This document shows, in pieces, positions 1,733 through 35,999 of a stretch of 64,000 bases of DNA; positions within the stretch are counted from its first letter, which is position 1; the number at the start of each line of letters is the position of its first letter. Source of the stretch: Macrostomum lignano. Lineage: Eukaryota. The notes under the pieces were generated by a model. It was not told where the DNA came from and made no database searches. It saw only the letters and a program-made list of their open reading frames with translations. The stretch spans positions 124,001-188,000 of the forward strand of contig NIVC01000598.1 of NCBI GenBank assembly GCA_002269645.1. The letters run 5' to 3'. A program made the position numbers and the translations under genes.

Positions 1733-1840
1733 ATCCACCAGACAATAAGTAGCTAGAGCGACAATTTCCTTAGCTTTATAGTGGCTCCTTTAAATTGGCA
1801 TGGCGCTTTATACCTTTACATTTGAAATTGGATATCTTGA

Positions 1841-4800
1841 ATGTTTGACATGGTGGCTATTTTATGTTTGACATAGTGGCTCTTCTATGTTTGACATGGT
1901 GGCTCTTTTATGTTTGACATAGTGGCTCTTTTATGTTCGACATGGTGGCTCTTCTATGTTTGACATGGTGGCTTTTTTAGGTTTGACATGGTGGCTCTTT
2001 TATGTTTGACATGTTGACTTTTTTATGTTCGACACGGTGGCTTTTTAATGTTCGACATGGTGGCTCTTTTAGGTTTGAACCGGTGGCTCTTTAATGTTTG
2101 ACATGGTGGCTCTTTAATGTTCGACATGGTGGCTCTTTTATGTTCGACATGGTGGCTCTTTAATGTTTGACATGGTGGCCCTTTAATGGTTAACATGGCG
2201 GCTCTTTAATTTTCGAAATGGTGGCTCCTTAATTTTCGAAATGGTGGCTGTTTTATGTTTGACATGGTGGCTCTTTAATGTTCGACATGGTGGCTCTTTA
2301 ATGTTTGACATGGTGGCCCTTTAATGGTTAACATGGCGGCTCTTTAATTTTCGAAATGGTGGCTCCTTAATTTTCGAAATGGTGGCTGTTTTATGTTTGA
2401 CATGGTGGCTCTTTAATGTTCGACATGGTGGCTCTTTAATGTTTGACATGGTGTCTGTTTTATGTTTGATATGGTGGCTCTTTAATGTTCGACATGGTGG
2501 CTCTTACATGTTTGACATGGTAACTCTTTTATGTTTGATATGGTGGCTCTTTAATGTTCGACATGGTGGCTCTTTAATGTTCGACATGGTGGCTCTTTAA
2601 TGTTCGACATGGTGGCTCTTTAATTTTTAACATGGTGACTCTTTTATGTTCGACATGGTGGCTCTTTTATGTTTGACATAGTGGCTCTTCTATGTTTGAC
2701 ATGGTGGCTCTTTAATGTTTGACATGGTGGCTCTATTATGTTTGACATGGTGGCTCTTCTATGTTTGACATGGTGGCTTTTTTAGGTTTGACATGGTGGC
2801 TCTTTTATGTTTGACATGTTGGCTTTTTAATGTTCGACATGGTGGCTTTTTAATGTTCGACATGGTGGCTCCTTTAGGTTTGAAATGGTGGCTCTTTAAT
2901 ATTTGACAAGGTGGCTCTTTAATGTTCGACATGGTGGCTCTTTTAGGTTTGAACCGGTGGCTCTTTAATGTTTGACATGGTGTCTGTTTTATGTTTGACA
3001 TGGTGGCTCTTTAATGTTCGACATGGTGGCTCTTTAATGTTCGACATGGTGGCTCTTTAATTTTTAACATGGTGACTCTTTTATGTTCGACATGGTGGCT
3101 CCTTAAGGTTTGAAATATTGGCTCTTTAATGTTTAACATGGTGGCTTTTCTATGTTCGACATGGTGGCTTTTCTATGTTCGACATGGTGGCTCTTGTATG
3201 TTCGACATGGTGGCTCTTTTAATGGTCGACATGGTGGCTCTTTAATGTTCTTCATGTTGGCTCTTTTATGTTTGACATGGTGGCTTTTTTATGTTTGACA
3301 TGGTGGCTCTTTTATGTTCTACATAGCTGCTCTTTTATGTTCGACATTGTGGCTCTTGTATGTTCGACAGGGTCGCTCTTTTAGGTTTGAAATGGTGGCT
3401 CTTTAATATTTGACAAGGTGGCCCTTTAATGTTTAACATGGCGGCTCTTAAATTTTCGAAATGGTGGCTGTTTTATATTTGACATGGTGGCTCTTTAATG
3501 TTCGACATGGTGGCTCTTTAATGTTCTTAATGGTGTCTGTTTTATGTTTGACATGGTTGCTCTTTTATGTTCGACATGGTGGCTCTTTAATTTTTAACAT
3601 GGTAACTCTTTTATGTTTGATATGGTGGCTCTTTTATGTTCGACATGGTGGCTCTTGTATGTTCGACATGGTGGCTTCTTTAGGTTTGAAATGGTGGCTC
3701 TTTAATATTTGACAAGGTGGCTCTTTAATGTTCGACATGGTGGCTCTTTTAGGTTTGAAATGGTGGGTCTTTAATGCTTGACAATGTGGCTCTTTAATGT
3801 TTGACATGGTGGCTCTTTAATGTTCGACATGGTGGCTCTTTAATGTTTGACATGGTAACTCTTTTATGTTTGATATGGTGGCTCTTTTATGTTCGACATG
3901 GTGGCTCTTTAATGTTTGACATGGTGGCTCTTTAATGTTTGACATGGTAACTCTTTTATGTTTGATATGGTGGCTCTTTTATGTTCGACATGGTGGCTCT
4001 TGTATGTTCGACATGGTGGCTTCTTTAGGTTTGAAATGGTGGCTCTTTAATATTTGACAAGGTGGCTCTTTAATGTTTGACATGGTGGCTCTTTAATGTT
4101 TGACATGGTGGCTCTTTTAGGTTTGAAATGGTGGCTTTTTAATGTTTGACAATGTGGCTCTTTAATGTTTGACATGGTGGCTTTTTAATGTTCGACATGG
4201 TGGCTCTTTTAGGTTTGAACCGGTGGCTCTTTAATGTTTGACATGGTGGCTCTTTAATGTTTGACATGGTGTCTGTTTTATGTTTGACATGGTGGCTCTT
4301 TAATGTTCGACATGGTGGCTCTTTAATGTTTGAAATGGTGGCTCTTTAATGTTCGACATGGTGGCTCTTTAATTTTTAACATGGTGACTCTTTTATGTTC
4401 GACATGGTGGCTCCTTTAGGTTTGAAATATTGGCTCTTTAATGTTTAACATGGTGGCTTTTCTATGTTCGACATGGTGGCTTTTCTATGTTCGACATGGT
4501 GGCTCTTGTATGTTCGACATGGTGGCTCTTTTATGTTCGACATGGTGGCTCTTGTATGTTCGACAGGGTCGCTCTTTTAGGTTTGAAATGGTGGCTCTTT
4601 AATATTTGACAAGGTGGCCCTTTAATGTTTAACATAGCGGCTCTTAAATTTTCGAAATGGTGGCTCCTTAATTTTCGAAATGGTGGCTGTTTTAGGTTTG
4701 ACATGGTGGCTCTTTAATGTTCTTAATGGTGTCTGTTTTATGTTTGACATGGTGGCTCTTTAATTTTTAACATGGTGGCTCTTTTAGGTTTGAAACGGTG

Positions 4801-7800
4801 GCTCTTTAATGTTTGACATGGTGGCTTTTCTATGTTCGACATGGTGGCTCTTGTATGTTCGACATGGTGGCTTCTTTAGGTTTGAAATGGTGGCTCTTTA
4901 ATATTTGACAAGGTGGCTCTTTAATGTTCGACATGGTGGCTCTTTAATGTTTGACATGGTGGCTCTTTTAGGTTTGAAATGGTGGGTCTTTAATGCTTGA
5001 CAATGTGGCTCTTTAATGTTTGACATGGTGGCTCTTTAATGTTCGACATGGTGGCTCTTTAATGTTTGACATGGTAACTCTTTTATGTTTAATATGGTGG
5101 CTCTTTTATGTTCGACATGGTGGCTCTTTAATGTTTGACATGGTGGCTATTGAATGTTTGACATGGTAACTATTTTAGGTTTGAAATGGTGGGTCTTTAA
5201 TGCTTGACAATGTGGCTCTTTAATGTTTGACATGGTGGCTATTGAATGTTCGACATGGTTGCTCTTTAATGTTCGACATGGTGGCTCTTTAATGTTTGAC
5301 ATGGTAACTCTTTTATGTTTGATATGGTGGCTCTTTTATGTTCGACATGGTGGCTCTTTAATTTTCGACATGGTGGCTCCTTTAGGTTTGAAATGGTGGC
5401 TCTTTAATGTTTGACATGGTGGCTCTTCTATGTTCGACATGGTGGCTCTTTAATGTTCGACATGGTGGCTCTTTAATTTTTAACATGGTAACTCTTTTAT
5501 GTTCGACATGGTGGCTCCTTAAGGTTTGAAATATTGGCTCTTTAATGTTTAACATGGTGGCTTTTCTATGTTCGACATGGTGGCTTTTCTATGTTCGACA
5601 TGGTGGCTCTTGTATGTTCGACATGGTGGCTCTTTTAATGGTCGACATGGTGGCTCTTTAATGTTCTTCATGTTGGCTCTTTTATGTTTGACATGGTGGC
5701 TTTTTTATGTTTGACATGGTGGCTCTTTTATGTTCTACATAGCTGCTCTTTTATGTTCGACATTGTGGCTCTTGTATGTTCGACAGGGTCGCTCTTTTAG
5801 GTTTGAAATGGTGGCTCTTTAATATTTGACAAGGTGGCCCTTTAATGTTTAACATGGCGGCTCTTAAATTTTCGAAATGGTGGCTGTTTTATATTTGACA
5901 TGGTGGCTCTTTAATGTTCGACATGGTGGCTCTTTAATGTTCTTAATGGTGTCTGTTTTATGTTTGACATGGTTGCTCTTTTATGTTCGACATGGTGGCT
6001 CTTTAATTTTTAACATGGTAACTCTTTTATGTTTGATATGGTGGCTCTTTTATGTTCGACATGGTGGCTCTTGTATGTTCGACATGGTGGCTTCTTTAGG
6101 TTTGAAATGGTGGCTCTTTAATATTTGACAAGGTGGCTCTTTAATGTTCGACATGGTGGCTCTTTTAGGTTTGAAATGGTGGGTCTTTAATGCTTGACAA
6201 TGTGGCTCTTTAATGTTTGACATGGTGGCTCTTTAATGTTCGACATGGTGGCTCTTTAATGTTTGACATGGTAACTCTTTTATGTTTGATATGGTGGCTC
6301 TTTTATGTTCGACATGGTGGCTCTTTAATGTTTGACATGGTGGCTCTTTAATGTTTGACATGGTAACTCTTTTATGTTTGATATGGTGGCTCTTTTATGT
6401 TCGACATGGTGGCTCTTGTATGTTCGACATGGTGGCTTCTTTAGGTTTGAAATGGTGGCTCTTTAATATTTGACAAGGTGGCTCTTTAATGTTTGACATG
6501 GTGGCTTTTTAATGTTCGACATGGTGGCTCTTTTAGGTTTGAACCGGTGGCTCTTTAATGTTTGACATGGTGGCTCTTTAATGTTTGACATGGTGTCTGT
6601 TTTATGTTTGACATGGTGGCTCTTTAATGTTCGACATGGTGGCTCTTTTAGGTTTGAACCGGTGGCTCTTTAATGTTTGACATGGTGGCTCTTTAATGTT
6701 TGAAATGGTGGCTCTTTAATGTTCGACATGGTGGCTCTTTAATTTTTAACATGGTGACTCTTTTATGTTCGACATGGTGGCTCCTTTAGGTTTGAAATAT
6801 TGGCTCTTTAATGTTTAACATGGTGGCTTTTCTATGTTCGACATGGTGGCTTTTCTATGTTCGACATGGTGGCTCTTGTATGTTCGACATGGTGGCTCTT
6901 TTATGTTCGACATGGTGGCTCTTGTATGTTCGACAGGGTCGCTCTTTTAGGTTTGAAATGGTGGCTCTTTAATATTTGACAAGGTGGCCCTTTAATGTTT
7001 AACATAGCGGCTCTTAAATTTTCGAAATGGTGGCTCCTTAATTTTCGAAATGGTGGCTGTTTTAGGTTTGACATGGTGGCTCTTTAATGTTCTTAATGGT
7101 GTCTGTTTTATGTTTGACATGGTGGCTCTTTAATTTTTAACATGGTGGCTCTTTTAGGTTTGAAACGGTGGCTCTTTAATGTTTGACATGGTGGCTTTTC
7201 TATGTTCGACATGGTGGCTCTTGTATGTTCGACATGGTGGCTTCTTTAGGTTTGAAATGGTGGCTCTTTAATATTTGACAAGGTGGCTCTTTAATGTTCG
7301 ACATGGTGGCTCTTTAATGTTTGACATGGTGGCTCTTTTAGGTTTGAAATGGTGGGTCTTTAATGCTTGACAATGTGGCTCTTTAATGTTTGACATGGTG
7401 GCTCTTTAATGTTCGACATGGTGGCTCTTTAATGTTTGACATGGTAACTCTTTTATGTTTAATATGGTGGCTCTTTTATGTTCGACATGGTGGCTCTTTA
7501 ATGTTTGACATGGTGGCTATTGAATGTTTGACATGGTAACTATTTTAGGTTTGAAATGGTGGGTCTTTAATGCTTGACAATGTGGCTCTTTAATGTTTGA
7601 CATGGTGGCTATTGAATGTTCGACATGGTTGCTCTTTAATGTTCGACATGGTGGCTCTTTAATGTTTGACATGGTAACTCTTTTATGTTTGATATGGTGG
7701 CTCTTTTATGTTCGACATGGTGGCTCTTTAATTTTCGACATGGTGGCTCCTTTAGGTTTGAAATGGTGGCTCTTTAATGTTTGACATGGTGGCTCTTCTA

Positions 7801-7961
7801 TGTTCGACATGGTGGCTCTTTAATGTTCGACATGGTGGCTCTTTAATTTTTAACATGGTAACTCTTTTATGTTCGATATGGTGGCTCTTTTATGTTCGAC
7901 ATGGTGGTTCTTTAATGTTCGACATGGTGGCTCCTTTAGGTTTGACATGGTGGCTCTTCTA
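1841..7961. repeat. About 6.1 kb array of a 23-bp satellite (ATGTTYGACATGGTGGCTCTTTW)n with an about 2.4 kb higher-order duplication
   Basis: The monomer is visible throughout. Identical variant strings recur at offsets 2416 (3101/5517, 3461/5877) and 2370 (5223/7593). Confidence 0.98.
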
Positions 7962-8029
7962 TTGCGCTTTTTTTATGTTTAGCAGTTTTTTTGTTTTTAA
8001 GGTGTTTTAATAAAAAAATTATTTTGCGC

Positions 8030-19865: not shown

Positions 19866-20504
19866 AAATTTAAAGCTAAATAACTTTAGTTTGAAAAAAA
19901 GTTAAATTGAAAGCTAAAAAGGGTTTGGTTAGTCACCGCCGTCAAAATTGATGCCGATTGCAGAATCATCAAAGTCTCGTCATGGCGGTGCGGTGGTTGG
20001 CTCGGGCAGTGGGCAGCAGTCATGCAGAGTCTGTTGGTGCCGCTGCTGTCGGCATGCTACAGCCGGCTGGTAGTTGACCCAGACGGCAACGATGCATGCC
20101 GCGGTCCGACGTGGGTCTTTATTTTGGCATCACCAACTGGATGGTTTGTCGAGCAGCTTCAGTGCTGGCTGATGTCGACCGATTGACAGGCACTACGTAC
20201 ATAGTTCGAACCGCACCGCTGCGCCTTCCTACTGAGAAGTTTTGCGGTCTCGCGTACCGGTACAGCTAAGGTTCGGCATATTTGTGTTCGGCTCTGGGAA
20301 AGGTTTGCAGTCAACTTTTCGCACACACGAATAATTAGACCTTATTTACAATTCTATTTACACTGTTGTCCATTACCTATACTACTCAGGTTCCACTCAC
20401 AGTTACTCGTCTACCTTCACTGAAACATCTCAATGCAGCTATTTTTCCCTAATTTAACTGAAATATATTACGCTCGAAGCACTTTTGCAAACTCGTATCG
20501 GAAC

Positions 20505-21485
20505 TTAATTAGTAAATTGCATCGGAATGCAAATACCTGTGTTTAGAATCATGGTTCCGTTGCTAAAGTTCATGCTCTCACAAAAGTTCATGAAAAAATC
20601 CATTCCCAAGATGTCATCGCACTCATGACTGCATAGCAAGAAGTCTGTCTCAACTTCTACCTCTTCGAACTCTATTGTCACCGAAACTTCTCCTTCAATT
20701 TGAACATCCGATCCATCGAAAGTGATCACTCTTCTATCGGATGGTCGAATTTCTTGGTCCCTGCATACTTCTCTCCAGGTGCTTCTACTTAGGAAGTTAT
20801 TACCAGCTCCGGTGTCTAACAGAAAGCGAACGTTCTGTGTACGAATTCTTCCATCGATTACCGCTTCTCTAGATTTCGTCTTCGTATCAGCACTTGTACT
20901 TGGCTCTTCATTTGCACTTTCATGCAGCTTAATGCTCTCTCCTGCTGGGCTTGGAGTACTTTTCTCTTCCTCCTCACTACGTACTTCAGAATAGCAATTG
21001 GATGCGCGCATAGTATCTACATCCGGCAGTGTAGGAGCATTTGCGTGATTTCTGTTTGGTCTTCTGAACTGATTATAGTCTTCAAATGGCTTGTACATGC
21101 ACGCATACTGTTTGCTACATTGGTACGCATTTGTTACAGAATCAAAGGCCAGAGTTTCACTTCTTGATTTGCTAAATCGGCGCGGCCTCGTTACACGGCC
21201 CTCGCTTAGCTGCCTTGGATTGTTCTGCTTAGCACTCCTGCAGTGCCTCGCGATGTGACCAATCTTCCCGCAGTTGTAGCAAGTCAGCGGCTGACGTCGC
21301 GGCTGACCCGAGTTCGGGTGCTGCAGCTTGGCAAACATCTGCTGTCGTGACTGCAATACTCCGTTGGCATACTGTGGCGGAATGGGCTGCTGCTGCTGCT
21401 GCTGGAACCCTCGAGGATACTGTCTAACAGCTGGTGCAGACGAATACACGTAGTTCTTTGGAAATTGCGAGTGACTATTCTGCAT
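20505..21485 (-). CDS. Truncated retrotransposon gag (CCHC knuckle)-aspartic protease ORF, 326 aa
   Basis: CYNCGKIGHIARHC zinc knuckle and VRFLLDTGAGNNF...DDILGMDF retropepsin motifs. No capsid region upstream and no RT or integrase downstream. Confidence 0.88.
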   Translation of the reverse strand: MQNSHSQFPKNYVYSSAPAVRQYPRGFQQQQQQPIPPQYANGVLQSRQQMFAKLQHPNSGQPRRQPLTCYNCGKIGHIARHCRSAKQNNPRQLSEGRVTRPRRFSKSRSETLAFDSVTNAYQCSKQYACMYKPFEDYNQFRRPNRNHANAPTLPDVDTMRASNCYSEVRSEEEEKSTPSPAGESIKLHESANEEPSTSADTKTKSREAVIDGRIRTQNVRFLLDTGAGNNFLSRSTWREVCRDQEIRPSDRRVITFDGSDVQIEGEVSVTIEFEEVEVETDFLLCSHECDDILGMDFFMNFCESMNFSNGTMILNTGICIPMQFTN

Positions 21486-22099
21486 TTTCTCTTAGCTTAG
21501 TTCTGGCAGGCTTTCTTCTGCTCTTCGATTTCAAATCTCTGCTTTGAAATTGTACTAGGGGTACGACTGTGTTTCGTAAATAATCCCACCGCTGCCACCA
21601 AGTTGTTGCAGATGATGTTTACTAATTTTTTTGTTTTGGATTTATCTCGCTAGGGGTTTTGGTTTAATTCTAGAATTTATCTTAAATTGGACACCAAATT
21701 TGTTACAGACTATATACTGATATTAAATTGCCTGAGAAGATTGGGGGGGGGGGGGGGTCTTGGGCTTTCGTGTATGCACGGATTGCCCTGGTAGCGCGCA
21801 GTGCCCGAGCGGCAGAACACTGTTTTGGCTGGTTGGGGGTGAATCAGTCCTAAAGTGGCGCCCTCCAATGGATCGAGGTGGCCCGGTGATTTCTCTTTCC
21901 TCTTACGGATTGGCTTGTGTCAATTACGACTTCTTATTGGCTGTTTCAGTTCGAATGCTTCTATTGGGGCATTTCACCCTCTGCTCTTGGCAAATTGAGC
22001 CTTGACTCTTTGCTGTAACGTTAGTGGCTCTTAGACTAGTCGTCTTGTGCTCTTGGTATTTTCTACCTGTCCAATGAGCATTCGCTCTTAGTTCTAACA
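20505..22099 (-). mobile_element. Defective Gypsy-type LTR element: putative 5' LTR 22099-21604, tRNA-Leu PBS 21600-21582, gag-PR fragment
   Basis: Plus-strand AATCCCACCGCTGCCACCA (21582-21600) equals the 3' end of animal tRNA-Leu(AAG/TAG) plus CCA. It lies 3 nt from TGTTGCA, the LTR end. The LTR start at 22099 (TGTTAG) is inferred from the TGTT..AACA terminal inverted repeat. No second LTR was found. Confidence 0.75.
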
Positions 22100-22344
22100 A
22101 ATGAGGAAAGACTTAAGCAACTCCGCTTATTCGTTCTTTATCAGAAAATGGGACAGTTGAACCAAAATTATCGGTTGGCCTCTGGGGCGCAAAAACGGCT
22201 TGTATTTATACTAGTTCAAGCGAGGGGGAAGAGCGCATTTAAACAAACTACGTGAATTTTCGTTCCTAGATTTCTTGTGGGAATTTAAAATAGTCGCCTC
22301 TCTCAAAATGATTCTTTCCAATATTGTTGATATTCAACCAGTCT

Positions 22345-23153: not shown

Positions 23154-23425
23154 TATGAGACTAGAGATAATAGAGACTTAGAGACTAGATAGGCCTAGTC
23201 TTAATAGTCTTAAAAAAGACTCTATATACTTAGATTTTAAGTATATAGAGACTATATACTTAAAATATATAGTCTCGTCTCTATGCTAATGGCAATGCTA
23301 GCTAGTTATATTATTATTATGTATAATTTATAAATAAAAGCAATATATTAATTTTACATATTTATATTATTATTGAAATTATATAAGTAAAAACATTAGA
23401 TTGCCTATTTGTCTTAACTTGTTAT

Positions 23426-24192
23426 TGTAGTAGTGCTTCAATACTGTACGAATTTTGAGCAATAAAGGTATGTTTTCTTAGAAACTAAACTCGTGCGAAA
23501 TACTAGATAAATATTTTGTTTTACCGTACCGAATATTTTTGTTTTACTGCGCAAAATAAATTGGGGAATTATTTTTTGTTTTAATCGTATGGGGGGGAAA
23601 CCACTATATATAGGAGCGATTTTATGGCAAATAAAACAACTGTCTTTTACTCGTGAGCAAATAATTGCGAACAGAATAAGCAGTTCAATCTAAACCATTT
23701 CAAAGTCTTTGAGCTAAATAGCGACTTATTTATTTGCAAAACCTGTGAAACGATTCTAAGAAATTTGCTAAGAGAAGGGAATTGGGACTAATTCTTGGAG
23801 ATATACCAAGAGAGGCGCCGTGACCCTCTAGTCTCGGTGAACGCCCGATTAGGACTATACACTAATACATATACCAGTACTAGACCGCTCAGGCCATAAG
23901 CTACTAGAACGCTACCAGAAAGCAAGCCATAAGCTACCAGAAACGCTACTAAGAACGCTACCAGAAACGCTACTAAGAACGCTACCCAGAAATATTTAAA
24001 TGAAATTCTAAGAAATAGTTAGGGAGTAAAAGCAAGTACAATCAGGATAACTGTAGTTGGCAAATCGGTGGGATCAAAATTGATAAAGTAAGAGGTGAAA
24101 GGCCTGTAACAACTTTGGTGGCAGCTCGTAGGATATTTAATAAACACTAATAGTTAGAAGTTTAGAAAGACAGAGCCAAAAGGCCTGTCACA
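23426..24192 (+). repeat. 5' LTR
   Basis: Direct repeat of 30979-31747, followed by the PBS. Confidence 0.95.
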
Positions 24193-24293
24193 GCTGGTGG
24201 CAGCGATAAGGATTAGAGAAACGGCGCGAACTCTCAAAACTAGATTCAGAAGAATTCCGAAGAATAATTTGAAAAGTTTTTCATAGAGAGAAG

Positions 24294-24872
24294 ATGAATC
24301 AGAATCAGGCTAATGATGCCATCGCCATGCTGGCAGAGGAACTGAGGAAACATCTCAAGTTAGGATCGAAGGAGGCTGAAGTGCAAGTAGAAAAGTTCAC
24401 ACCTGGTCAGAACATTAGGCAGTGGATGAACACGTTTGAGCAGCAGTGCAGAATCCAAGGGATTACAGGCGAGAAACAGAAGGAAGCTCTCTTTGCTAAT
24501 CTAAACATCCCAGAGGGACTGAAACGCCGAATCAGTCACAGAAAAGAGCAGAGTCAGTATCAGGAAATTAGGCGACGAATAATCGAAGAATTTGAGCCGA
24601 AGCAGCAGAACCGAAAAGAGGGAATTGATGCATTAGTAGAGTGTCTAATGACCTTGACCTTCGTGCTAACGAACATTAGCCTAGAACCAAAGACAGGGCA
24701 GCAGCAGCAGTCAGTGCTAAGACCGCGCCGCCTGAACAGATTCAGTGGAATCAGGCCAGAGCCGACACCTGGTCACTGCTTCTTCTGCAACCAGCCAGGA
24801 CCCATTAGGCCTCAAGCAGGACACCAGTGCCGAATCAACTTCAATCGGTACGCCCAGCAGAAGCCGCCATAA
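24294..24872 (+). CDS. Shortened gag-like protein (192 aa) of the LTR element
   Basis: Located just after the PBS. KFTPGQNIRQWMNTFEQQCRIQG resembles the capsid N-terminus of Gypsy gag. CFFCNQPG...HQC is a degenerate knuckle. Confidence 0.7.
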   Translation: MNQNQANDAIAMLAEELRKHLKLGSKEAEVQVEKFTPGQNIRQWMNTFEQQCRIQGITGEKQKEALFANLNIPEGLKRRISHRKEQSQYQEIRRRIIEEFEPKQQNRKEGIDALVECLMTLTFVLTNISLEPKTGQQQQSVLRPRRLNRFSGIRPEPTPGHCFFCNQPGPIRPQAGHQCRINFNRYAQQKPP

Positions 24873-25901
24873 TCAGAAAGTGAGCGAACTCAAGCGAATC
24901 AGCAAATTAAAAGTGTCTGTAAAGCAAATCTGTAAATATGTTTCAAATATATATGCATAAATATAAAAACGAATAAAAAAATTCAGAAAAACCCAAAAAC
25001 ATTTGATTAAGAGGTATTTTGTTGGCATGTTGCAAGGCAATAAGCTGTCTAAAAGAAATAAAATAATTAAATTTTAGGAAGGTGACCCTTAAAAGGGCCG
25101 TTTGACCTTAAAAGGGCCGTTTTACTAAGAAACTTATTTAGGAAAGCCAGGGAACTGCAATTTCGGACTGAAAACATTGAAGGAAGATTATTTTACTCAG
25201 AGAAGTTGACGAGAAGTTGATGCTGAGAGAATTGTGCAGAATTGTGCGAAGAGAATTGTCGAAAAGATTGGATTGCAGAGATTGGCATGACGCGCGGACA
25301 GCTACGCATGCTGACCAATTGCGGATTGGCCAAAGGCAGAAAGAAGAGGCCGATGACGCTTTCAGAAGAGCCAAAAAAGGTTCAGAGAGTCAGGCCATGC
25401 AGGAAAGGAAGGGCAGTAAGGCCTAAAGAGCAGATTAATACAGAATTTCTATGATTCTACTGACGAGGCCAAACTGAGATAGCGGAAGGGGATTCGAGAT
25501 TTGAGAATTTGTTAAGAGTTGTAGGACCCGTGACAGTAGAGCTGTAGCTGGCATGAGTTCAGCAGAGAAGCTTTCGAGAGGTCAGGGTCGAGTTGAGATA
25601 TTGAGTCGAGAAGTTGTTGAGTTGAGATGAGATGAAATGAAGATGAGATTTCGAAGAGAAGCTGTGAGAATTTGCAAAATTGTTCGAAGAAAAACAGTAA
25701 TAATCTGACTCCAGTGCCGAAATCCGAAATTGATTTACCAGAGGAAATTAATAATAATTTAAAACCAGCACCAGTGTCAACTAAGAAGAAAGAACAGCCG
25801 AAGCCGAAGAAAAGAATTTGCCATAGACAAAAAGAAGTTAGAATTCCAGAAGTTCAAATTTTAGAGGAGGAAAGCTCAGACGAAGAAAACAGAATTCAAT
25901 G

Positions 25902-28900
25902 CACAGCACCCATGGAACATCTTTTAGGGAGAAAAAAAGTACGAAGCAATCCATTCAACTTTTCTTGTTCCATAGACACCTGTAGATGAAAAAAATGAAA
26001 AACAGAAAAAAATTTGCGATAGCTTCATGTTTTATTGCACTTTTTGAATTTTCATGTACTTTTAATTGGCAAAACAGGAAGACATTCCATAAAAACTGCC
26101 ATTTCAGCTTACAGGTCATTAGCAAAATAAATTCAGCTACCTTTTTATCCCATACAGCCAAATAAATAACTAAAGACTTGTTTACATTGAAGCTAGTATC
26201 TCTGCGAGTCACACACTGTTCAAATTAAAGTACCACTAGTCTTGCACAAAGTCTAAATTGATTTGAGTATTCAATGATCTACAGAGTAACTAAACCTTTA
26301 TTTCTGGCTCATATAATCGATAGCATTTGATTGGCCAAATCGTTGTACACGCAGCTAAGCTGAATGAAATCAACCAATCGATTGCTTAACTTTAGGCGGC
26401 CAGTTTTTAACTTAACCGATGTACATCCACCAGACATTTACAATGCTGCACTCGTCTGAAAATTTCATGCCCGCAAGCAGGCCAACTATAAGGTTCAATG
26501 AAAATGTACAATCATGCACTACAAACTCAGTAAACATCTCACAGTGATAGGAAAATCCACTCTATCCTAGCATAAAACAACGCCAACAAACTTCAAATAA
26601 AGTTATATTCTATCATCAGTTTTATAGCACTTTTGATAGCTCTGCAATGCCATCAACGGCTTTAACTCATTCGGAGAATCGATTGAAAGTATGCCTGATC
26701 TGCTTTAAAAAAGGAGCATCTCATGAACCTATTCGTGACGCAAATCTACAACGCATCAATCGAAATTTTATCGAAGATATTGACATCACTGATGAAAGTC
26801 TTCCAGCATCTTTGTGCGCTCGGTGTCGCAAACTTCTTCTTGATGTCGACAGTGGTAGAAAGCCAGTGGATGCTCTGCCCCAACCATATGACTTCTCAAA
26901 AGTGAAGCAGACAGCAGTCACACGACAGAATCCCCTGTGCCATTGTGATCTGTGTGAAGTCCCCCGGATGACTCCGATTGGTCAGGGGCTTGGCTCTGCC
27001 AAAGTTCCGGCTCACCCGATTGGCCGGCCGAAGAAATCCAACGACCAGCTGCCTGTAGCTTTGCCAGCTAAAATCTGCCGACGCTGCCTTTGCATCCTCC
27101 GGCGAGGAGTCAGTCACTGCTGTACCATCACTCAACGCCGGGAAAACCTGTGCACAGAGTACTCTGTGGACCAGCGAGGGGCTGAGATGCACGCAGCCAA
27201 AGTAATCAAAAGAAAAGCTGTCGATGCGCACGGTGCTGCTCCAATTCAACTGGCAACTCGTGGGCGTAATCTAACACTCAGTCTCCTAGCCCCATCACAA
27301 GCTAAAAACTCGGCTGCTTTTTACGATTCGCCGATCTCAGCATCTGAAATGAGCTGCTTTCAGCAGGCGCTGAGTCTAAGCAGACGGCAAACGAGGACTG
27401 CAGCGCAATTCTTCCGTAAGTGGAAAGGGCGGAAGTCAATTGAAGCAGGCCTGGAGTCGAAGTTGCAGCAGCTGGACAGCAGCCTCAGCGAGTATTTTTC
27501 GGTGACCGATGCAGAGTTTGAGATCAGCGGCGGTCAGAAGAAGCGCTGCTCCGTCGTATTCTGCAGGGACCCAGCAGGTCTCATTGATTACATGCTGCAA
27601 CACCGGAGGGCGCCTTTTGGTTCTGAGTTCGTTGCAAAAGTTGGAATGGACAGTGGTGGTGATTTTCTGAAAATCTGTCTCAGCCTCATAGTTGACACAT
27701 CAACTGATGCAAGTGACTTCGAGACTCAGGCTGCCGATGTCTGCTCAAGCCACTTTGCCGAAGGAGGTGTCAAGAGACTCATGCTACTAGGAATTGTTCA
27801 AGGAGTGAAAGAAACGTATGCCAACCTTAAGACCATGCTGGATCTTTTGAATATGAAAGGCGTCCGATATTACTGCTCGATGGACATGAAGATGGCCAAC
27901 ATCTTCCTTGGGCTTCAGGCATGCAGCAGCTTGCATCCGTGTCCTTGGTGCGAGTGCAGGCGGAACCTTTTTGGTGATGCGCATCGTGACATCCAGCTGC
28001 GGACGCTCGGTGCCATTCGAAGAAATACAGCCCAGTATCAGCAGGCAGCTCGGCAGCATCGGGGCAGTTTGCAGCTTGGAGCTGCCAACTTCAAGAATTG
28101 TGTGCATGATCCACTAACAGATCTGCCTGACGACACCGAGGTTCTAACGATCGTGCCTCCAATGGAACTGCACCTGATGCTGGGAATTACCAACCGGCTG
28201 CTGGAAGAACTGGACACGCGACTCCAAGCGACAAATGACTGTTCGGTGCGCATTGATGACTGGCTTGCTCGACTGGGAGTTCAGCGACAGCCTCAGCATG
28301 GCAGGCAGATAAACGGCAATGACTGCGCAAAGGTGCTGGAGTCAGTAGATCAGTTGGAGCAGATGGTCCGAGACTGCGATGCTTGCCTGGGAATGCCCGT
28401 TGTGTTTGCTCTGCGGTGCTTTCGAGAGGTAAAGAGAACCTGCTTCAGCCTTGAACTGCGCGATGGCTTCGAGACCGCCGTGGCTCACTTTGCTCAGGCT
28501 TACGCGGATCTCGGTATTAGCACCACGCCGAAGGTGCACGCGCTGATTGACCACGTGGTGCCTTTCCTCTCAAGCGCTGACAACAGGGAAGCCCGACGTG
28601 GACTAGGCTTTTGGTCTGAGCAAGCTGGCGAAGCTGTGCATCGCGATTTCAACAGCCTGTGGTGCCGCAGCTACAAAGTTAGTCCTACAAATTCTCAGTA
28701 TGCACAACAGCTGCTGAAGTGCACTGTTGCGTACTGCTCGCGGCATTTGTGACCTGCTTTAATAGTAAGAACATTTTCTTTTTCTAAGTCTTTTTTTTGT
28801 TTGCAATAGCAGATAGAAAAAATGTGTCTTTAAGCTATCTATAATATTTGTTTATGGTAAAAACTTATTTAAAAAACACTATTTAAAGTAGCCTAATGCA

Positions 28901-29183
28901 CTGCATATAATTTTTTTATCGGCCTGATAGTTTAAGTTAAGCAGGTAGCTGAATTTAATACGCTGATGACCTGCAAGCTGAAATGGCAGTTTTTATGGAA
29001 TGTCTTCCTGTTTTGCCAATTAAAAGTACATGAAAATTCAAAAAGTGCAATAAAACATGAAGCTATCGCAAATTTTTTTCTGTTTTTCATTTTTTTCATC
29101 TACAGGTGTCTATGGAACAAGAAAAGTTGAATGGATTGCTTCGTACTTTTTTTCTCCCTAAAAGATGTTCCATGGGTGCTGTG
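25902..29183 (+). mobile_element. Intact Chapaev-type (CMC, RAG1/Transib-related) DNA transposon, 3282 bp
   Basis: Perfect 209-bp TIRs (25902-26110 and 28975-29183) starting CACAGCACCC, with about 30 bp of imperfect extension. 4-bp TSD AATG (25898-25901 and 29184-29187). Single intact transposase ORF. Confidence 0.92.
26647..28752 (+). CDS. Chapaev transposase, 701 aa (N-terminal Chapa-like Zn finger plus RAG1-like DDE core)
   Basis: N-terminus H-x7-C-x2-C...P-x3-C-x2-C (HSENRLKVCLIC...PASLCARC). Core motifs: VGMDSGG (D1), SMDMKMANIFLGLQACSSLHPCPWC (D2 and CxxC), ELHLMLGI, TPKVHALIDHV, GFWSEQAGEAVH (E). These parallel RAG1 LHCDIG, YFHKTLAHV and GAWASEGNESGN. Confidence 0.9.
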   Translation: MPSTALTHSENRLKVCLICFKKGASHEPIRDANLQRINRNFIEDIDITDESLPASLCARCRKLLLDVDSGRKPVDALPQPYDFSKVKQTAVTRQNPLCHCDLCEVPRMTPIGQGLGSAKVPAHPIGRPKKSNDQLPVALPAKICRRCLCILRRGVSHCCTITQRRENLCTEYSVDQRGAEMHAAKVIKRKAVDAHGAAPIQLATRGRNLTLSLLAPSQAKNSAAFYDSPISASEMSCFQQALSLSRRQTRTAAQFFRKWKGRKSIEAGLESKLQQLDSSLSEYFSVTDAEFEISGGQKKRCSVVFCRDPAGLIDYMLQHRRAPFGSEFVAKVGMDSGGDFLKICLSLIVDTSTDASDFETQAADVCSSHFAEGGVKRLMLLGIVQGVKETYANLKTMLDLLNMKGVRYYCSMDMKMANIFLGLQACSSLHPCPWCECRRNLFGDAHRDIQLRTLGAIRRNTAQYQQAARQHRGSLQLGAANFKNCVHDPLTDLPDDTEVLTIVPPMELHLMLGITNRLLEELDTRLQATNDCSVRIDDWLARLGVQRQPQHGRQINGNDCAKVLESVDQLEQMVRDCDACLGMPVVFALRCFREVKRTCFSLELRDGFETAVAHFAQAYADLGISTTPKVHALIDHVVPFLSSADNREARRGLGFWSEQAGEAVHRDFNSLWCRSYKVSPTNSQYAQQLLKCTVAYCSRHL

Positions 29184-29687
29184 AATGGAGAGTATTCGCA
29201 GATCCGAATTCGCAGAGTGAAAACGAAGGAAATGAAGAATTGAACAGTGAGAATACAGAGAGAGCGACTGACTCAGATGAGCCATCAGAAGAAGAAGAAG
29301 GAGCATTAGAGTTAGAGAAGGAACGAGTTCAGCCAGAGAATAGGTATAACTTTAGGATGACTCAGCGAAGGAGAGAAAGAGAAGGCGCGACAGGATTTGT
29401 GCCCCGAAGGCGCTACGCGAAATATTTAGCACCTTAAACCATGACGTAAGCAATTTCCCATAAGAAACAGTGTTAAACAGTTAAATTTCCGTATTAGAAT
29501 TACTTATCTGCTTATAAAATTTGACATGCTGTACATAGAGCGAATCTGTAAATACCATATTAATCTAAAAAATGCGATCTTTAATTTGATACTTTACTCA
29601 AGAAAATCTATCAAAAAATAAAAAAGTTATAAAAATAAATAGAAAATCCATAAAAATTTAGTTGTCAAATCTGTCAAATCTGGCATG

Positions 29688-29754
29688 CCCCGCCCCACGC
29701 GCGAGGGGAGTGCTTCGAAGAGGTCCAGTTTTTCGGCCCGCCAGCCTATAAATA
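29688..29754 (+). promoter_or_regulatory. Candidate internal Pol II promoter (GC box and TATA) for the extra ORF
   Basis: CCCCGCCCC at 29688-29696 and TATAAATA at 29747-29754, about 90 bp upstream of ATG 29836. Motif evidence only. Confidence 0.5.
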
Positions 29755-29835
29755 CGAGCACCCCGCAGGCCCCACAGATCCCATAGCTCACTGCTAGCTT
29801 CCTTTCTATTCTAAGAGTCATTCGAAGAGAACCAT

Positions 29836-30741
29836 ATGGATAACTCAGTCGCCATTCTGCAAGAGTTGATCGGTGACCTGTCCGAAGAGATTGAGCCTCA
29901 GCCGGAGCCTAATGTTGACGAGAACGAGGCGCCGCTACGTTGTCCAACAAGACCAAAGGCGCCTGGTGTAAGCAACAAAAGGCCGAGGGCATCGCCACAA
30001 GCATCATCGCCGTGCCGCCAATTAAACGTGGATGGCCCAGAGCAAAAGCGAGCCGCCTTGCTGACAACACAGGCAGCGGCGCCCATTCGTTCGTACGTTA
30101 TCAAGGCCACGCCAGGCTCGTCAACAGCAGGAAGAACGCAGCAGCTAGTGTCGCCGCCATCTGCCCCGCCATCGAAGAAGCCTCCAGCACCGCGGCGGAA
30201 GAAGCCCGAGGCCGCGCCAACAACGGCTCAACAGCCGCCGAGTCTGCCGGCAGCTCCGCAGCCAGTTTCACTGCCGAACCAGCAGCCAGCTCAACAGTCA
30301 CCGAGTCTGCAGGCAGTTCCGCAGCTAGCTCCACAGCCAGCTCTGCAGCCGAGTCAACAACCAGCTTCGCAGCCGCCGACACCGCAGCAAGACTATCATC
30401 GAATTGTCCGAAAGCTTGTAGAGACTCGTGGATCTGAGGTCGAGAAATTGCGCTTCCATATTGAGCAGTACTCGCTGAAGGTCGCGTACCATCGATCTGA
30501 CATGCGGCAGCGATATCCTCAAGGGTCTCAGATCTGGCAGCACCTGAAGTTCCTTAGGGAACAGTTTAGCCACCAAGAAGCGGTTGCGATTCTGCAAGAT
30601 GTCGCCCATCGTATCCAAAGGGCCAGGCAAGTCAACCCGCCACCTTCGCTAGCTGTACTAGACGAGGAGTACAACTGGTTCTTCTCTCAAATCGGCTGGC
30701 CTTATTACCGTGATCTACCTGAACCATGCAAATTTATTTGA
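29836..30741 (+). CDS. Unknown 301-aa accessory ORF of the LTR element (Pro/Gln-rich linker, basic patches, about 115-aa helical C-terminal domain)
   Basis: Intact ATG-to-stop ORF between the pol remnant and the PPT. No signal peptide or TM segment, so not env-like. No family recognised. Confidence 0.7.
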   Translation: MDNSVAILQELIGDLSEEIEPQPEPNVDENEAPLRCPTRPKAPGVSNKRPRASPQASSPCRQLNVDGPEQKRAALLTTQAAAPIRSYVIKATPGSSTAGRTQQLVSPPSAPPSKKPPAPRRKKPEAAPTTAQQPPSLPAAPQPVSLPNQQPAQQSPSLQAVPQLAPQPALQPSQQPASQPPTPQQDYHRIVRKLVETRGSEVEKLRFHIEQYSLKVAYHRSDMRQRYPQGSQIWQHLKFLREQFSHQEAVAILQDVAHRIQRARQVNPPPSLAVLDEEYNWFFSQIGWPYYRDLPEPCKFI

Positions 30742-30978
30742 GTTGAACTATCAGAATTGAACTAACTATTGCGTTTACTATCTCACCTGTGCTTTACTTT
30801 TGCCTTTAATAGTTTTAACAATGCTTCCACGATTTTTGCACAACCATTTTATGCACTAGTATGTTGACTTAGCACTCATATATATTTTTTTTGCACTTAG
30901 TTGCGCACTTTTCACCTATATTGATATCAATTTTTCACTGTAATTGTTCGTTCAAACTTGATATTAAGAGGAGGAAGT

Positions 30979-31747
30979 TGTAGTAGTGCTTCAATACTGT
31001 ACGAATTTTGAGCAATAAAGGTATGTTTTCTTAGAAACTAAACTCGTGCGAAATACTAGATAAATATTTTGTTTTACCGTACCGAATATTTTTGTTTTAC
31101 TGCGCAAAATAAATTGGGGAATTATTTTTTGTTTTAATCGTATGGGGGGGGGAAACCACTATATATAGGAGCGATTTTATGGCAAATAAAACAACTGTCT
31201 TTTACTCGTGAGCAAATAATTGCGAACAGAATAAGCAGTTCAATCTAAACCATTTCAAAGTCTTTGAGCTAAATAGCGACTTATTTATTTGCAAAACCTG
31301 TGAAACGATTCTAAGAAATTTGCTAAGAGAAGGGAATTGGGACTAATTCTTGGAGATATACCAAGAGAGGCGCCGTGACCCTCTAGTCTCGGTGAACGCC
31401 CGATTAGGACTATACACTAATACATATACCAGTACTAGACCGCTCAGGCCATAAGCTACTAGAACGCTACCAGAAAGCAAGCCATAAGCTACCAGAAACG
31501 CTACTAAGAACGCTACCAGAAACGCTACTAAGAACGCTACCCAGAAATATTTAAATGAAATTCTAAGAAATAGTTAGGGAGTAAAAGCAAGTACAATCAG
31601 GATAACTGTAGTTGGCAAATCGGTGGGATCAAAATTGATAAAGTAAGAGGTGAAAGGCCTGTAACAACTTTGGTGGCAGCTCGTAGGATATTTAATAAAC
31701 ACTAATAGTTAGAAGTTTAGAAAGACAGAGCCAAAAGGCCTGTCACA
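30979..31747 (+). repeat. 3' LTR
   Basis: Direct repeat of 23426-24192, preceded by the PPT and followed by the TSD. Confidence 0.95.
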
Positions 31748-33837
31748 TTATCTATTTGCTTATTATTAGAACTTTAGACTTTAGTCTCTATAATAACTTA
31801 AGTACTAATTAGTTGACATTTTAATTGCCTAATAGGGAATACTAATAGGGGGTTTACTAGGCCAAAATTTTACATTGCTAAAAGCAGTTTCCTTAACAAG
31901 GCCAAATATTCACTAGGCCAAAATTTCATTATACCAAAAAATATTTTTACTGGCATCTTTCACTAGGCCAAAATAGCTAGCATGTTATTTCATAAGGCCA
32001 AAATTTCACTGGGCCTAAATTTGGGCTGAGCAAGTAATTTACTATGCTATATATGCATTGAATTTGTACAAATATACATATGGAATTATCAACCAACTTG
32101 GTATATATAGCCAGTATAAATTATAATAGACCAAGGCAAATGGTAAGTTGCAAAGCTAACAACCAAAAACTAGACATAAATATCAATGAACTAAGAAAAT
32201 GGATAAGGAAGCAAAATTAAAGCAAATATTTAACAAATAAAATATCAATAGCATCTAAAGGGACCAAGTGGCCAGTGTTGCCATACCTGCATAAATTGTA
32301 CACAGCTGCACAAAATTTCAAAATCTGTACAAATGTGCAAAAATGAGGAAATCCCCCTTTTCTATGCAAGTGGGATAGTCAATCATTTTTTTCGAATTAC
32401 CTTTTTATGTTTTATGTAAGATTTATACTATTTATACACAGTGGTCAATAGAGTATGTACTATAGAAATGAAGAGACTGATAGTCTGCCAAACTATTTGG
32501 AGCTAAGGCTCAAGCAAGACAATAACCAAAAAATTTATAAAAAGGGTTAGTAAGCCCTCACAATAATATATTTATTTGTAGTCACAATTAGCTAGTGTGG
32601 AGGGGTATGCAAAATGGGCCTAGGCTAGACCAGCATATATAGCAAACTGAATAAAGCATGTACATTAAATCAAGCAATGCAGGGAAAATCAATAAGTTAA
32701 TAGTCTACTCCCAAACAGGATACATTATAAAACTACTTAAATTACTACCTTGACACTATATATAATTATTTGTACTAGATGTAAATGTGTTATAGATGTG
32801 TATTTCCCTTTTTTGGGCCTCTATAAGTGATTAGGGGCCTAGCTACATAGTAGCAATACTATAGAAGAAAGTTTGCCATGTTATAGATGCATTAATATAT
32901 ACAATAGGTCTATTTCAATAGAGGCATGCAATGGTATAGTGGCATATAATTTGAAGAACTGTCTTAGCTGCTATTTTTGGATAGGAATAGCTCATAGAGC
33001 ATTCTGTCATTGATTTCAAATGTTTTGCATTTAATTTATGCATTGGGTTGATGGATTTTTAGCCCAACCTTGCATAATTGAAGGACTTGTCAAAAGTGCA
33101 AGACATCTATTAATTTTGCAAAGAAGGCTTTTTCATTGCATAAAAAACAGAATATGCTTTACCAACTTATAAATAAAAAGGGCAGTCTTGGCTGCACAAA
33201 GATTTACTATAGCTTGAGTGGTAACACTGCAAGTGGCTAGATGTAGAAGCTTTGTGGGTCATCTCTGGCCTGTAGTCTAAAGCTTGCTAATATAGTATCT
33301 AGTGAGTTTTTTATTGGCATACATTTGTATACAAATAAATAAATTTCAAATTTCTTTCTGTCATTATATTCTGTTATGAGCTATTCTATGGCTTGCTCAT
33401 TCAAGGCAGTACTTGAATAATGCCTTATACCTTAAGGCTGTCAATGTTATCAATAAGCCTTTTATGCAATTTGGCCTAGTTTCTCTTCAATTATTTCTTT
33501 CTCTAGGGTTGGCTGAACATCCCCCTATTGCTAACTTCAATTCTAAGTATTAAAAAACAAATTTTCAATTTGTATTTTATGTGAATATAACATCAAAAGA
33601 TATTGTAAATAATGGGTAACACAATTTCATAGAATAATGTTTCTCAATTCTTACCATTGATCAAATAATGTTGTGGCACTAAGTAAACTTAAAAACTATT
33701 TTGTCTTGTGTGCAATCACAAATTACCTTTCAATACTGATTATTATTTTTTCTATATGCTTCCAGAATTCTTTAATTTTTATTTAATTTTCTAAATTGCA
33801 TTCATGCTAAGCTGCTCAAATTGCTGACAAAGCAGTG

Positions 33838-35999
33838 ATGATGATGAATGGCCACAGCCCCATGCCCAGCTGGCAGCAGCTGCTGGCTACTCTGGATGCC
33901 AGTTTTGACAGCGCCAAGTCTGCTGTCCTGACCCAAGTTGACCCCACTGGTGCAAGCCCAGTACTTGGCCACCTGTCCCGGGTGCTGGACTACAATGTGC
34001 CGCATGGCAAGAAAACCCGCGGTGTCACCGTGCTGCTCGCCTGGGCTGCCTTTGCCAAAGACCGCGCCATCGCTGATGCTGAGACCGCCTGTCCGGCTGC
34101 CTGGGCCGTGGAGCTGCTGCAGGCCTCCTTCCTGGTGCACGACGACATCATGGACGGCAGTCAGACTCGGCGCGGCCGGCCCTGCTGGTTCCGCAATGAC
34201 GGTGTGGGGCTCATGGCAGTCAACGATGGCATCTTCCTCGACCAGGTGGGCCTTCTGGACCTTCTGAGCCTCCCAAATCCTCAGTTGCTGGGCCACCGCT
34301 AGCCTCCCAGATCCTCAGTTGCTGGGCCACCGCTACCCTCCCAGATCCTCAGTTGCTGGGTAACCGCTACCCTCCCAGACCCCTATCTCGTCTATCTCCC
34401 TCCTGTTCAGACAAGGCCCATGTCCAAGCCTCTAAATCAGTAGCATAAGTGCTCGTATAATACATTATCTAGCTCTATATGAGCGCACTGCACCATCTCA
34501 AAGCCATCGCGCATCCCGAATCCTCTCACAGGCGCTGTACGCTCTCCTGTCCTCGGCGTACAGCGAGCATCCGCAGTACAGTCGGCTGATGGACCTCTTC
34601 CACTCAGTGACCCTGACCACCTGCATTGGCCAGGCCTTGGACATGAGCCTCGGCGTGTCTGGCCTCACCTGGTCAGCTTATAGAGAGATGGTCTGCCGCA
34701 AGACCGCTCACTATTCCTTTCACCTGCCCGTGGCGGCGGCGCTGCTGTTGCGCAATCGGCCAGAACTGGTTGGCGTTGCCAAGCCGTTGCTGCTGCGCAT
34801 CGGGGAGTACTTTCAGGTAGAAATTTCAGATGTGAAATCCTTCGTTTTCTGTAACTCTTAGTTGATTTTTTGGTGTAGGGCCAGAAGGGGCGTTCGCCAC
34901 CAGCGCTGCAAGTTAAGCTGTGTTGGTCGCGGTTAGTACGCAAATGCAGCTAAATAGGCTCTCGACGGGAAATCATTTTCCTAGCAAAATCTGCAATTCA
35001 GTTATAAAACTGGTCTGCAGAGGTTTCAGTGGCACTAAACACTAAATCCAAAAACCTAGGCGGTACAGTTTGCCAATAAAGCCACCGCAAGACCATCGAT
35101 CAGCAGTCGATCATCGAGTCCGCTCTTCGCCTGGTCTTGCCGACGGCAAGCAGCGTGGTGCTCGCTACGAGGCCCATATTTTCAAGGGCCCGTATCAGAC
35201 GTGGGCCGAGGCACAAAAGCACGAGCAAGTTGTATGTGCCCGCCAGCTGTTTTCCCACCTTGCTTCTGTTTTTCGTGTGCCATTTGACACAGTTAAGTGA
35301 CAGTTACGAGCTATTTCCCATCACGACTCCTTCAAGGCAGCCACTGTGACTGAGTTGAGCTGAGCTGCGACCCTTAACAGTGGCAGACTGCGAGTACTGC
35401 GCCAGCTGCACACAGTCCTCGGGTGCGCTGCGCTGTTGCAGCGTTTCAGTCGTATTTTCATCAATTATTCTATTTTGCTTTCCTTACGATAACTAGATTG
35501 GGCTCTTGAACTTGATGAGCGAGTTAGCAGTATTAGGTTGAGATTCTGGATCCTATATTGGCTGCTTCAATATGCGAAATCCAAACCAAACACCTCCCTG
35601 AAGGCCCAGGACGACTACTTGGACTTCTATGGCGATCCGGCCGAGACTGGCAAGATCGGCACCGACATCCAGGAAGCCAAGTGCTCCTGGCTGGCGCTCA
35701 CCGCGCTGGACCGCCTGCGCGCCGCCGCCTCCGCCAAGCCCGACGGCGACAATTCGCCATCGCCTAGCGAGGCCTCCTCGCTGCTGGCCCGCTTTCAGGA
35801 CTGCTACGGACAGTCCGAGCCGGACCGGGTGGCCGCAGTTGGCGACATCTATCGGCGCCTCCGGCTAGACGCCGCCTACGCAGAATTCGAGGCGGCCGAA
35901 TTCGCCAGCATCGGCGCCAGCGTGGAGCAGCTGGACAGCCCGGAGCTGCGGCTGGTCTGCCGCACCCTGCTGCAGCTGATCCACGGCCGGCGGAAGTGA
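33838..35999 (+). CDS. FDPS: Farnesyl diphosphate synthase-family trans-prenyltransferase, about 362 aa, 3 exons
   Basis: Exons 33838-34245, 34532-34816 and 35604-35999; all introns GT-AG, phase 0. Motifs: GKKTRG, ELLQASFLVHDDIMDGSQTRRGRPCW (FARM), GQALD, KTAHYSF, GEYFQ|AQDDYLDFYGDPAETGKIGTDIQEAKCSW (SARM), C-terminal GRRK. Confidence 0.93.
34268..34385. repeat. Short intronic repeat, about 3 copies of CCTCCCAGATCCTCAGTTGCTGGGCCACCGCT
   Basis: Same unit as the 48540-48810 array. Confidence 0.85.

Follow-up and report, generated by a model that had tools for sequence, protein, structure and literature searches.

What does an intact gene do in a retrotransposon that has no polymerase, and does the element keep that gene for its own benefit? 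The question is raised by a long terminal repeat (LTR) element at 23426-31747 of a 64,000-nucleotide stretch of the Macrostomum lignano genome (the window; contig NIVC01000598.1 of assembly GCA_002269645.1, positions 124,001 to 188,000 of the forward strand). The element carries an open reading frame (ORF) of 301 amino acids, here called ORF3 (29836-30741, plus strand), between a remnant of pol and the 3' LTR. An earlier note on this DNA had argued that the element lost pol yet kept the ORF, so that the ORF benefits the element, and had proposed an anti-silencing role for it. We find that ORF3 is a clade-wide Gypsy gene and is not peculiar to the window's pol-less copy. It is standard across the clade and its variants are held in common with pol-bearing elements through recombination, so the argument from the loss of pol is not supported in that form.

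A copy search of the genome with the C-terminal 119 residues of ORF3, which the earlier note had proposed together with an estimate of the ratio of nonsynonymous to synonymous substitution rates (dN/dS), drew 215 candidates, of which 150 were scored and 140 proved to be matches, a match not being the same as a copy. Eighty ORF3 loci were fetched and, with the window, form a set of 81 in which at least two pairs are one insertion counted twice. The set was classed into 37 pol-less elements with a short gag, 26 gag-pol elements with a gag of about 335 amino acids, 3 deletion derivatives and 15 unclassed loci. The pol-bearing partners have the Gypsy order of protease, reverse transcriptase (RT), RNase H and integrase (Pfam, on the pol of L032 and L054). 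When elements were selected by gag only, an ORF3 homologue was found in the same slot in 16 of 20 further elements, the other four being interrupted or cut before the slot. At seven loci (L050, L070, L092, L093, L102, L103 and L150) the fetched stretch contains an ORF3 homologue but neither gag nor pol; these could be remnants, longer elements or domesticated copies, and P0008 is annotated as a 118-amino-acid gene. Head-to-tail tandem arrays of LTR-sharing elements were seen at G000:C2404, C241 and C1833.

The relation between the two classes was examined using trees of both genes. In the gag tree (residues 19-110, 32 rows; L061 and L062 were left out, and the gag of L046, L048 and L066 is not contained in a single open frame), all 18 rows from pol-less elements make up one side of a 100/99 branch. 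By this tree, the short Gag has a single origin and marks an old pol-less lineage. In the tree of the ORF3 domain (40 rows, L047 left out; the pol-less label there includes three rows without a short gag), 10 changes of class label are needed, and three sets of identical domains include members of each class. The approximately unbiased test (21 rows, 9 pol-less versus 10 pol-bearing) rejected a grouping of the pol-less ORF3s in one clade (p 1.6e-5). The RT-RNase H DNA of L032, L042, L046 and L049 is 98-99% identical and their ORF3 domains are 49-81% identical; for L058, L065 and L067 the figures are 99% and 44-65%. Since ORF3 variants are mixed across near-identical RT backbones and are common to both classes, the 3' module has been exchanged by recombination.

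All six pol-less/pol-bearing pairs that were compared have the LTR, leader, gag start, 3' end of pol and ORF3 in common and differ in the central core. The window's core (24352-25695, plus strand), which is private to the pol-less lineage and holds the rest of the short gag and about 820 bp of non-coding DNA, matched none of the seven pol-bearing copies tested; its non-coding part gave 29 genomic matches, of which 18 reach 99-100%. As the simplest reading, we infer an old pol-less lineage with flanks renewed from its partners by template switching. An ORF3 type usually travels with a type-specific 3' untranslated region (UTR) and U3 start. In the window, the initial 112 bp or so of the 5' LTR are specific to the window's ORF3 type and the remainder is common to group-1 partners. 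The U3 start gave 40 listed matches of 91 candidates, mainly single LTR-end matches, and the full 3' UTR was found at only two places in the genome, both pol-less. The element therefore has the marks of a non-autonomous coding LTR element: no pol core, cis signals, recent insertion, selected ORFs and recombination with autonomous families. For the clade sub-group, no motif match was found in the searched part of the HSE-family supplement.

The short gag of the window (24294-24872, plus strand; 192 amino acids) has about 19 N-terminal codons in common with the partner gag, followed by a lineage-specific, capsid-like part. Across approximately 40 loci the Gag of the pol-less lineage is 192-206 amino acids long and monophyletic, with 35% identity to the partner Gag across the first 170 residues and an altered C-terminal Cys/His motif (CxxC-x11-HxC). 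Its dN/dS (Nei-Gojobori, pairs not independent) was 0.09-0.16 in 9 of 15 pairs, and the other 6 were saturated. These ratios indicate that the short Gag is under purifying selection. It may co-assemble with partner Gag while favouring its own RNA.

ORF3 is also conserved. For its C-terminal domain, dN/dS was 0.04-0.24 in 8 of 19 pairs (Nei-Gojobori, pairs not independent); synonymous sites were saturated in 10, and one pair gave 0.31 on two changes. For the whole of ORF3, 19 close pairs were compared by the ratio of the corresponding proportions (pN/pS): 14 of them, some with both members pol-less, do not exceed 0.34, two with 3-5 changes reach 0.51 and 0.73, and in three the ratio is undefined. 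These values point to purifying selection on ORF3 and, with the frame open in the window, agree with the earlier description of an intact 301-amino-acid ORF that is not an env. A frame broken in most copies with dN/dS near 1, which the earlier note had named as the contrary outcome, is not what the ratios show; as for breakage, 21 of the 36 pol-less copies and 16 of the 25 with pol have an intact ORF3 (1 and 2 more, respectively, are open but compensated), both fractions being inflated by the picking of loci through an ORF3 match.

Selective keeping of ORF3 in pol-less copies was not borne out. With 14 reference copies excluded, intact ORF3s number 20 of 32 in pol-less against 8 of 15 in pol-bearing elements (p 0.75). 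Moreover, a gutted ORF3 that has lost the promoter motif, the start and nearly the whole domain is common to L139, whose LTRs are 100% identical, and to a tandem array of three copies that lies on a second contig in different flanking sequence. This sub-lineage is present at two young and independent sites, so ORF3 is dispensable in cis. Two pol-less "lesions" were alignment artefacts. Frameshift counts are an unreliable measure of decay, since L072 and L088 have the same 3' flank and differ by one; 13 broken ORF3s have short run indels alone. The pol control for intactness counted compensated gaps and was not used.

The protein layout was compared across 12 ORF3 types. All 12 have an acidic-hydrophobic start, with a net charge of -8 to -10 over the first 30 residues, and an EAPLRxxTRP-like motif, basic patches and a low-complexity linker of varying length (Pro/Gln in the window). 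The highest 19-residue hydropathy is 0.77 in the window and 0.59-1.11 across the types; by hydropathy and the acidic N-termini, none of the 12 has a signal peptide or transmembrane anchor, as had been claimed for the window. The C-terminal domain (30382-30738), which the same note had described as compact, is confidently predicted to fold into five helices (pLDDT 87, pTM 0.84, 26 sequences). It has an invariant D, PQ, L and W, and six basic columns are kept in 23-25 of the 26 sequences.

Searches for relatives of this protein were made at the level of both sequence and structure. One ORF3 type is in GenBank as a hypothetical protein (P0005, the L062 frame). No homologue outside the host was found among 2364 and 7997 candidates, and a library of 1.84 billion sequences gave 6 matches, consisting of 3 M. 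lignano hypothetical proteins, 1 unnamed Logan protein and 2 repetitive sequences judged spurious. Pfam gave nothing significant for ORF3 and 26 members, and the best PDB match by sequence had an E of 0.46. The fold prediction and Foldseek search that had been suggested were run, and at E 0.001 Foldseek found no match in PDB (single-sequence model) or BFVD. VIA-align gave best Z scores of 8.1 and 8.0, with AppA SCHIC (root-mean-square deviation 2.3, 80 aligned), values typical of common helical bundles, and an atlas gave no usable match for a stored homologue. A CID/VHS fold, weakly hinted at with an early model, was absent from the top 50 with the better one. A J-domain origin was rejected, with no HPD in the alignment, a profile probability of 0.1% and no DnaJ match in 26 members. 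In another Gypsy branch (L183-L187, RT about 43% identical) the ORF3s have a J-domain and a C-terminal helical domain of their own, of about 110 amino acids; kinship to that domain was not shown (profile probability 1.5-3.5%). The family, structure and homologue searches thus give no indication of a captured known host gene, in line with the earlier view.

The ORF3 protein family seems to be new, with many old variants on homogeneous backbones and a separately evolving short Gag beside it. We found no description of the protein in the literature searched, including parts of PMC12801592 and the main text of PMC13524379; Repbase, reference 16 of PMC12801592 and its supplements 2-4 lay outside that scope and could hold the family. 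The Macrostomum survey in PMC12801592 starts from RT, and the terms non-autonomous, additional ORF and ORF3 are absent from the parts covered.

Upstream of ORF3 there is a predicted internal promoter (29687-29760, plus strand). The earlier note had described a GC box and a TATA; both are present in the window (GC box at 29687-29696, TATA at -89), and the TATA recurs at -72 to -111 in 9 of 15 types, against 0.35 expected from shuffles, while the GC box is type-specific and not general. All but one of the 15 types have a GGTCCAG-T-run motif, placed between -106 and -137 (-116 in the window). An upstream coding motif, EHEDAVQFF, was rejected, its third positions being invariant. In run X10, which holds RNA as judged from a GT-AG joint in a neighbouring host gene, there are two short contigs of the window's ORF3 type at a depth of about 3.6; this is weak evidence, with DNA carry-over possible, and such contigs show neither the start nor the level of transcription. 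Before the TATA of the U3 in 15 LTR types we found the words TTGTTT(T/A)A(A/C) in 15, TTCYNRGAA-like in 9 and CGCGAAA-like in 8, counted with no chance control. They resemble STAT, E2F and CHR/Fox sites, a set that would be apt for expression in proliferating neoblasts.

Because of the protein layout, the promoter module and the travel with U3, and with foamy-virus Tas as a working model, we tentatively read ORF3 as a nuclear trans-acting activator of the clade elements' transcription, expressed from an internal promoter, although we give this somewhat less than an even chance. The pol-less RNA would be primed by tRNA-Leu, with partner Pol supplying reverse transcription and integration. A switch of templates in mixed particles would replace all but the 1.3-kb private core, so that the LTR, polypurine tract (PPT) and ORF3 would stay matched to current partners. 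ORF3 would be transcribed from its internal promoter and enter the nucleus, where the helical domain might bind element DNA or chromatin and the acidic N-terminus might recruit co-activators, acting mainly in trans as Tas does. The fuller picture of the elements' own sequence-specific activator or anti-silencer, with a new fold, encoded in an exchangeable gene-plus-U3 cassette of more than 12 ancient variants under frequency-dependent selection and passed between pol-bearing elements and a pol-less, short-Gag reservoir, we consider unlikely.

Several observations weigh against the activator reading and the lineage history behind it. The C-terminal domain has a net charge of only +1 to +7, no DNA-binding fold or family was matched in Pfam or the structure searches, and no binding site was identified. 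Six of 15 types have no canonical TATA, and the RNA evidence is one low-depth run. In L032, whose LTRs are identical, ORF3 of the window's type is joined to the 3' UTR and U3 of a different type, L099 is similar, and several copies carry chimeric ORF3s, so the link between ORF3 and U3 is not absolute. Purifying selection among very close copies is hard to reconcile with a purely trans-acting product. The gag tree, finally, carries a long-branch warning.

Other functions account for parts of the same evidence. ORF3 could be functional only in pol-bearing elements and hitch-hike in pol-less copies with the PPT and U3 that Pol needs, a proposal that is compatible with the other functional readings and would explain the identical domains across classes, the equal intact fractions and the gutted sub-lineage. 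We consider it somewhat unlikely. Against it, the pol-less pairs L051/L052 and L066/L105 have pN/pS of 0.28 and 0.34 (p <0.001) in types with no pol-bearing copy among the loci examined, where unsampled partners are possible. If ORF3 were repressive or conferred immunity, holding down copy number or shutting out related elements, each variant being an immunity type, frequency-dependent selection would be expected to leave the many old variants on near-identical backbones, and elements that have lost ORF3 could still spread. An acidic-hydrophobic N-terminus is more typical of activators, however, and purifying selection in spreading copies is awkward for a self-limiting product, which leaves this the least probable of the functions considered. 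It is also improbable that ORF3 is a post-transcriptional adaptor in RNA export, particle trafficking or the removal of restriction factors, working through its helical bundle and linear motifs. In favour of an adaptor, the structures closest to the ORF3 domain are helical interaction domains of a generic kind (Z at most 8.0), the protein has short linear motifs and a conserved, surface-type aromatic motif at the C-terminus, a preference for acting in cis on the RNA that encodes it would account for selection among close copies, and another Gypsy branch in the genome has J-domain ORF3s. Copies with a gutted ORF3 nevertheless spread, the profile comparisons given above support relation neither to the J-domain nor to that branch's C-terminal domain, and the travel with U3 would be left unexplained.

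The suggestion of the earlier note, a VANC-like factor that counters CpG methylation or piRNA-directed chromatin and whose variants are driven by a host arms race, was weighed using the CpG content of the locus. The ratio of observed to expected CpG, 0.95 in the LTR and ORF3, falls to 0.27-0.44 in the sequence 5' of the element and to 0.00-0.02 in that 3' of it, which confirms the methylation-like scars that had been described around the insertion. Of 7 diverged copies tested (14 aligned), 4 have an excess of CpG to TpG changes (0.10-0.33 versus 0.04-0.07, p at most 0.001) and 3 have none. M. lignano keeps DNMT1 and DNMT3 with low 5-methylcytosine, according to PMC11292947 and PMC10658182. Elements of the clade are therefore likely to be methylated at times; that ORF3 counters methylation does not follow. 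The old variants on homogeneous backbones would suit an arms race, and the LTR has tandem repeats, as VANC targets do (PMC5735166). These repeats, however, share a core across ORF3 types and do not track them, youth alone accounts for the lack of scars in young copies, and Pfam gave no VANC-family match at E up to 1. The acidic N-terminus fits plain activation. We thus regard an anti-silencing factor as a minority prospect, though the chief competitor of the activator reading; the protein layout suggests a fit to a transcriptional activator at least as good as to a VANC-like role.

Pol-less Gypsy families with selected ORFs and partner recombination have already been described, for example Athila. 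Du et al. (2010, Plant Cell 22:48) reportedly described autonomous and non-autonomous soybean partners with LTR swapping. There, too, the exchange of terminal regions reportedly keeps the partnership going, and in the flatworm the exchange extends beyond the LTR to a protein-coding gene whose family is not known. The Athila lineages of Arabidopsis are pol-less Ty3/Gypsy elements with a gag and a 3' ORF under purifying selection, linked by recombination to pol-bearing families (PMC2410132). The Athila 3' ORF is env-like and its host is a plant, whereas the flatworm ORF3 is soluble, has a promoter-like module, accompanies a separately evolving short Gag and exists in many old variants matched one-to-one with partners on near-identical RT backbones. 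Similar pol-less/partner cases are described for pararetroviruses (PMC5491270). Among bdelloid rotifer elements with diverse third ORFs, the non-autonomous TelKA2n family keeps its ORF3 without the gag C-terminus and most of pol; the rotifer ORF3s are env-like, GDSL, DEDDy, coiled-coil or transmembrane proteins, and the flatworm ORF3 matches none of these in Pfam (PMC5408684).

Foamy-virus Tas/Bel1 resembles ORF3 in being a 3'-encoded nuclear protein of the acidic class with an internal promoter, fast divergence and little homology between species (PMC517496). In Tas, however, the acidic domain is C-terminal, and the flatworm protein belongs to a host element without env and is known here from sequence; no Tas/Bel1 homology was found in Pfam, BFVD or PDB, and a missing match is not an exclusion. 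Tor3b/4b of Oikopleura are animal LTR elements in which a third gene follows pol on an internal promoter, but that gene is a transmembrane Env with mapped start sites, against motifs only in the flatworm (PMC4402516). Retand elements carry a lineage-wide extra ORF between pol and the 3' LTR, also in non-autonomous copies and with a proposed regulatory role; it is antisense, restricted to plants and matches Pfam TRP28, whereas the flatworm ORF3 is sense and has no Pfam match (PMC11963269). VANC of VANDAL is likewise an element-encoded trans-acting factor with fast-diversifying variants, but comes from a plant DNA transposon, has demonstrated demethylation activity and belongs to a family that Pfam does not match to ORF3 (PMC5735166). 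Self-encoded regulators of transcription or silencing are known in complex retroviruses and plant DNA transposons and are merely proposed for LTR retrotransposons. The flatworm family offers a test case, with natural ORF3 and U3 variants, recombinants and null copies, in a host for which transgenesis and LTR reporter assays are in print (PMC12801592). It also presents a partner lineage that is invisible to RT-seeded annotation, and old gene variants that outlive the backbones carrying them.

The remaining anatomy of the element (all on the plus strand) is that of a recent, non-autonomous Ty3/Gypsy insertion, as the earlier note had concluded. The 5' LTR (23426-24192, 767 bp, with a TATA near 23604 and an 11-12-bp tandem repeat) and the 3' LTR (30979-31747, 769 bp) begin with TG, end with CA and differ solely by two G in a G run, and the target-site duplication TTAT flanks them at 23422-23425 and 31748-31751. 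LTR pairs are at least 99.5% identical in 28 of 36 pol-less copies. The element span gave no protease, RT or integrase-core match, consistent with the claimed absence of an RT, RNase H and integrase core. The primer-binding site and PPT had both been called intact. The PPT is present (30966-30977, within the type-specific 3' UTR stretch at 30742-30977), and the tRNA-Leu primer site (24195-24205) agrees with bases 1-11 of the 18-base perfect form found in the clade, with a variant tail that is common to pol-bearing copies. The genome has 666 copies of the perfect 18-mer, which is complementary to tRNA-Leu genes of the host, and none of the reversed control. Across the clade, primer sites are variable past base 11 and the perfect site is often paired at a spacing of 35-90 bp. 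Many clade LTRs also have one or more earlier units resembling an LTR end and primer site within U5 (24100-24135 and 31655-31690 in the window).

Three features had not been mentioned previously: the short gag, a remnant of the 3' end of pol and a nested DNA transposon. The transposon (25902-29183, plus strand, 3282 bp) splits the remnant into a left part (25696-25901, 96-99% identical to L032, L034 and L042) and a right part (29184-29437). It has terminal inverted repeats of about 241 bp (CACAG...CTGTG) and a 4-bp AATG duplication. Insertion-free sister copies are about 5.0 kb long, and the transposon, a later passenger in the LTR element, makes up 40% of the window element's span. Genome-wide, its family is represented by 11 left ends (97-100% identical), of which 10 are paired with a corresponding right end, and the 5' flanks differ in all six loci read. 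The 701-amino-acid transposase-like ORF (26647-28752) has an N-terminus that is Cys-rich by eye, no PDB match and in Pfam just a weak DUF1280 hit at E 0.018, which does not confirm its class (compare PMC4411706). From the CAC termini, inverted repeats and 4-bp duplication we presume a Chapaev/Transib element. The 701-amino-acid ORF is intact, and contigs of runs guessed to be RNA cover the transposon.

The surroundings of the element hold further features. On the minus strand 1.3 kb upstream, 20487-22108 is a fragment of an older clade relative (zinc knuckle, protease and a piece of LTR) with 72-80% identity to the partners. A host polyprenyl-synthetase gene (FPP-synthase-like) lies 2 kb downstream on the same strand, at 33803-35999, and is the gene with the GT-AG intron in X10. 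The 19 loose 5' letters at 33803 in that run presumably represent a spliced leader. Positions 1700-8000 of the window hold about 260 copies of a 23-bp satellite.

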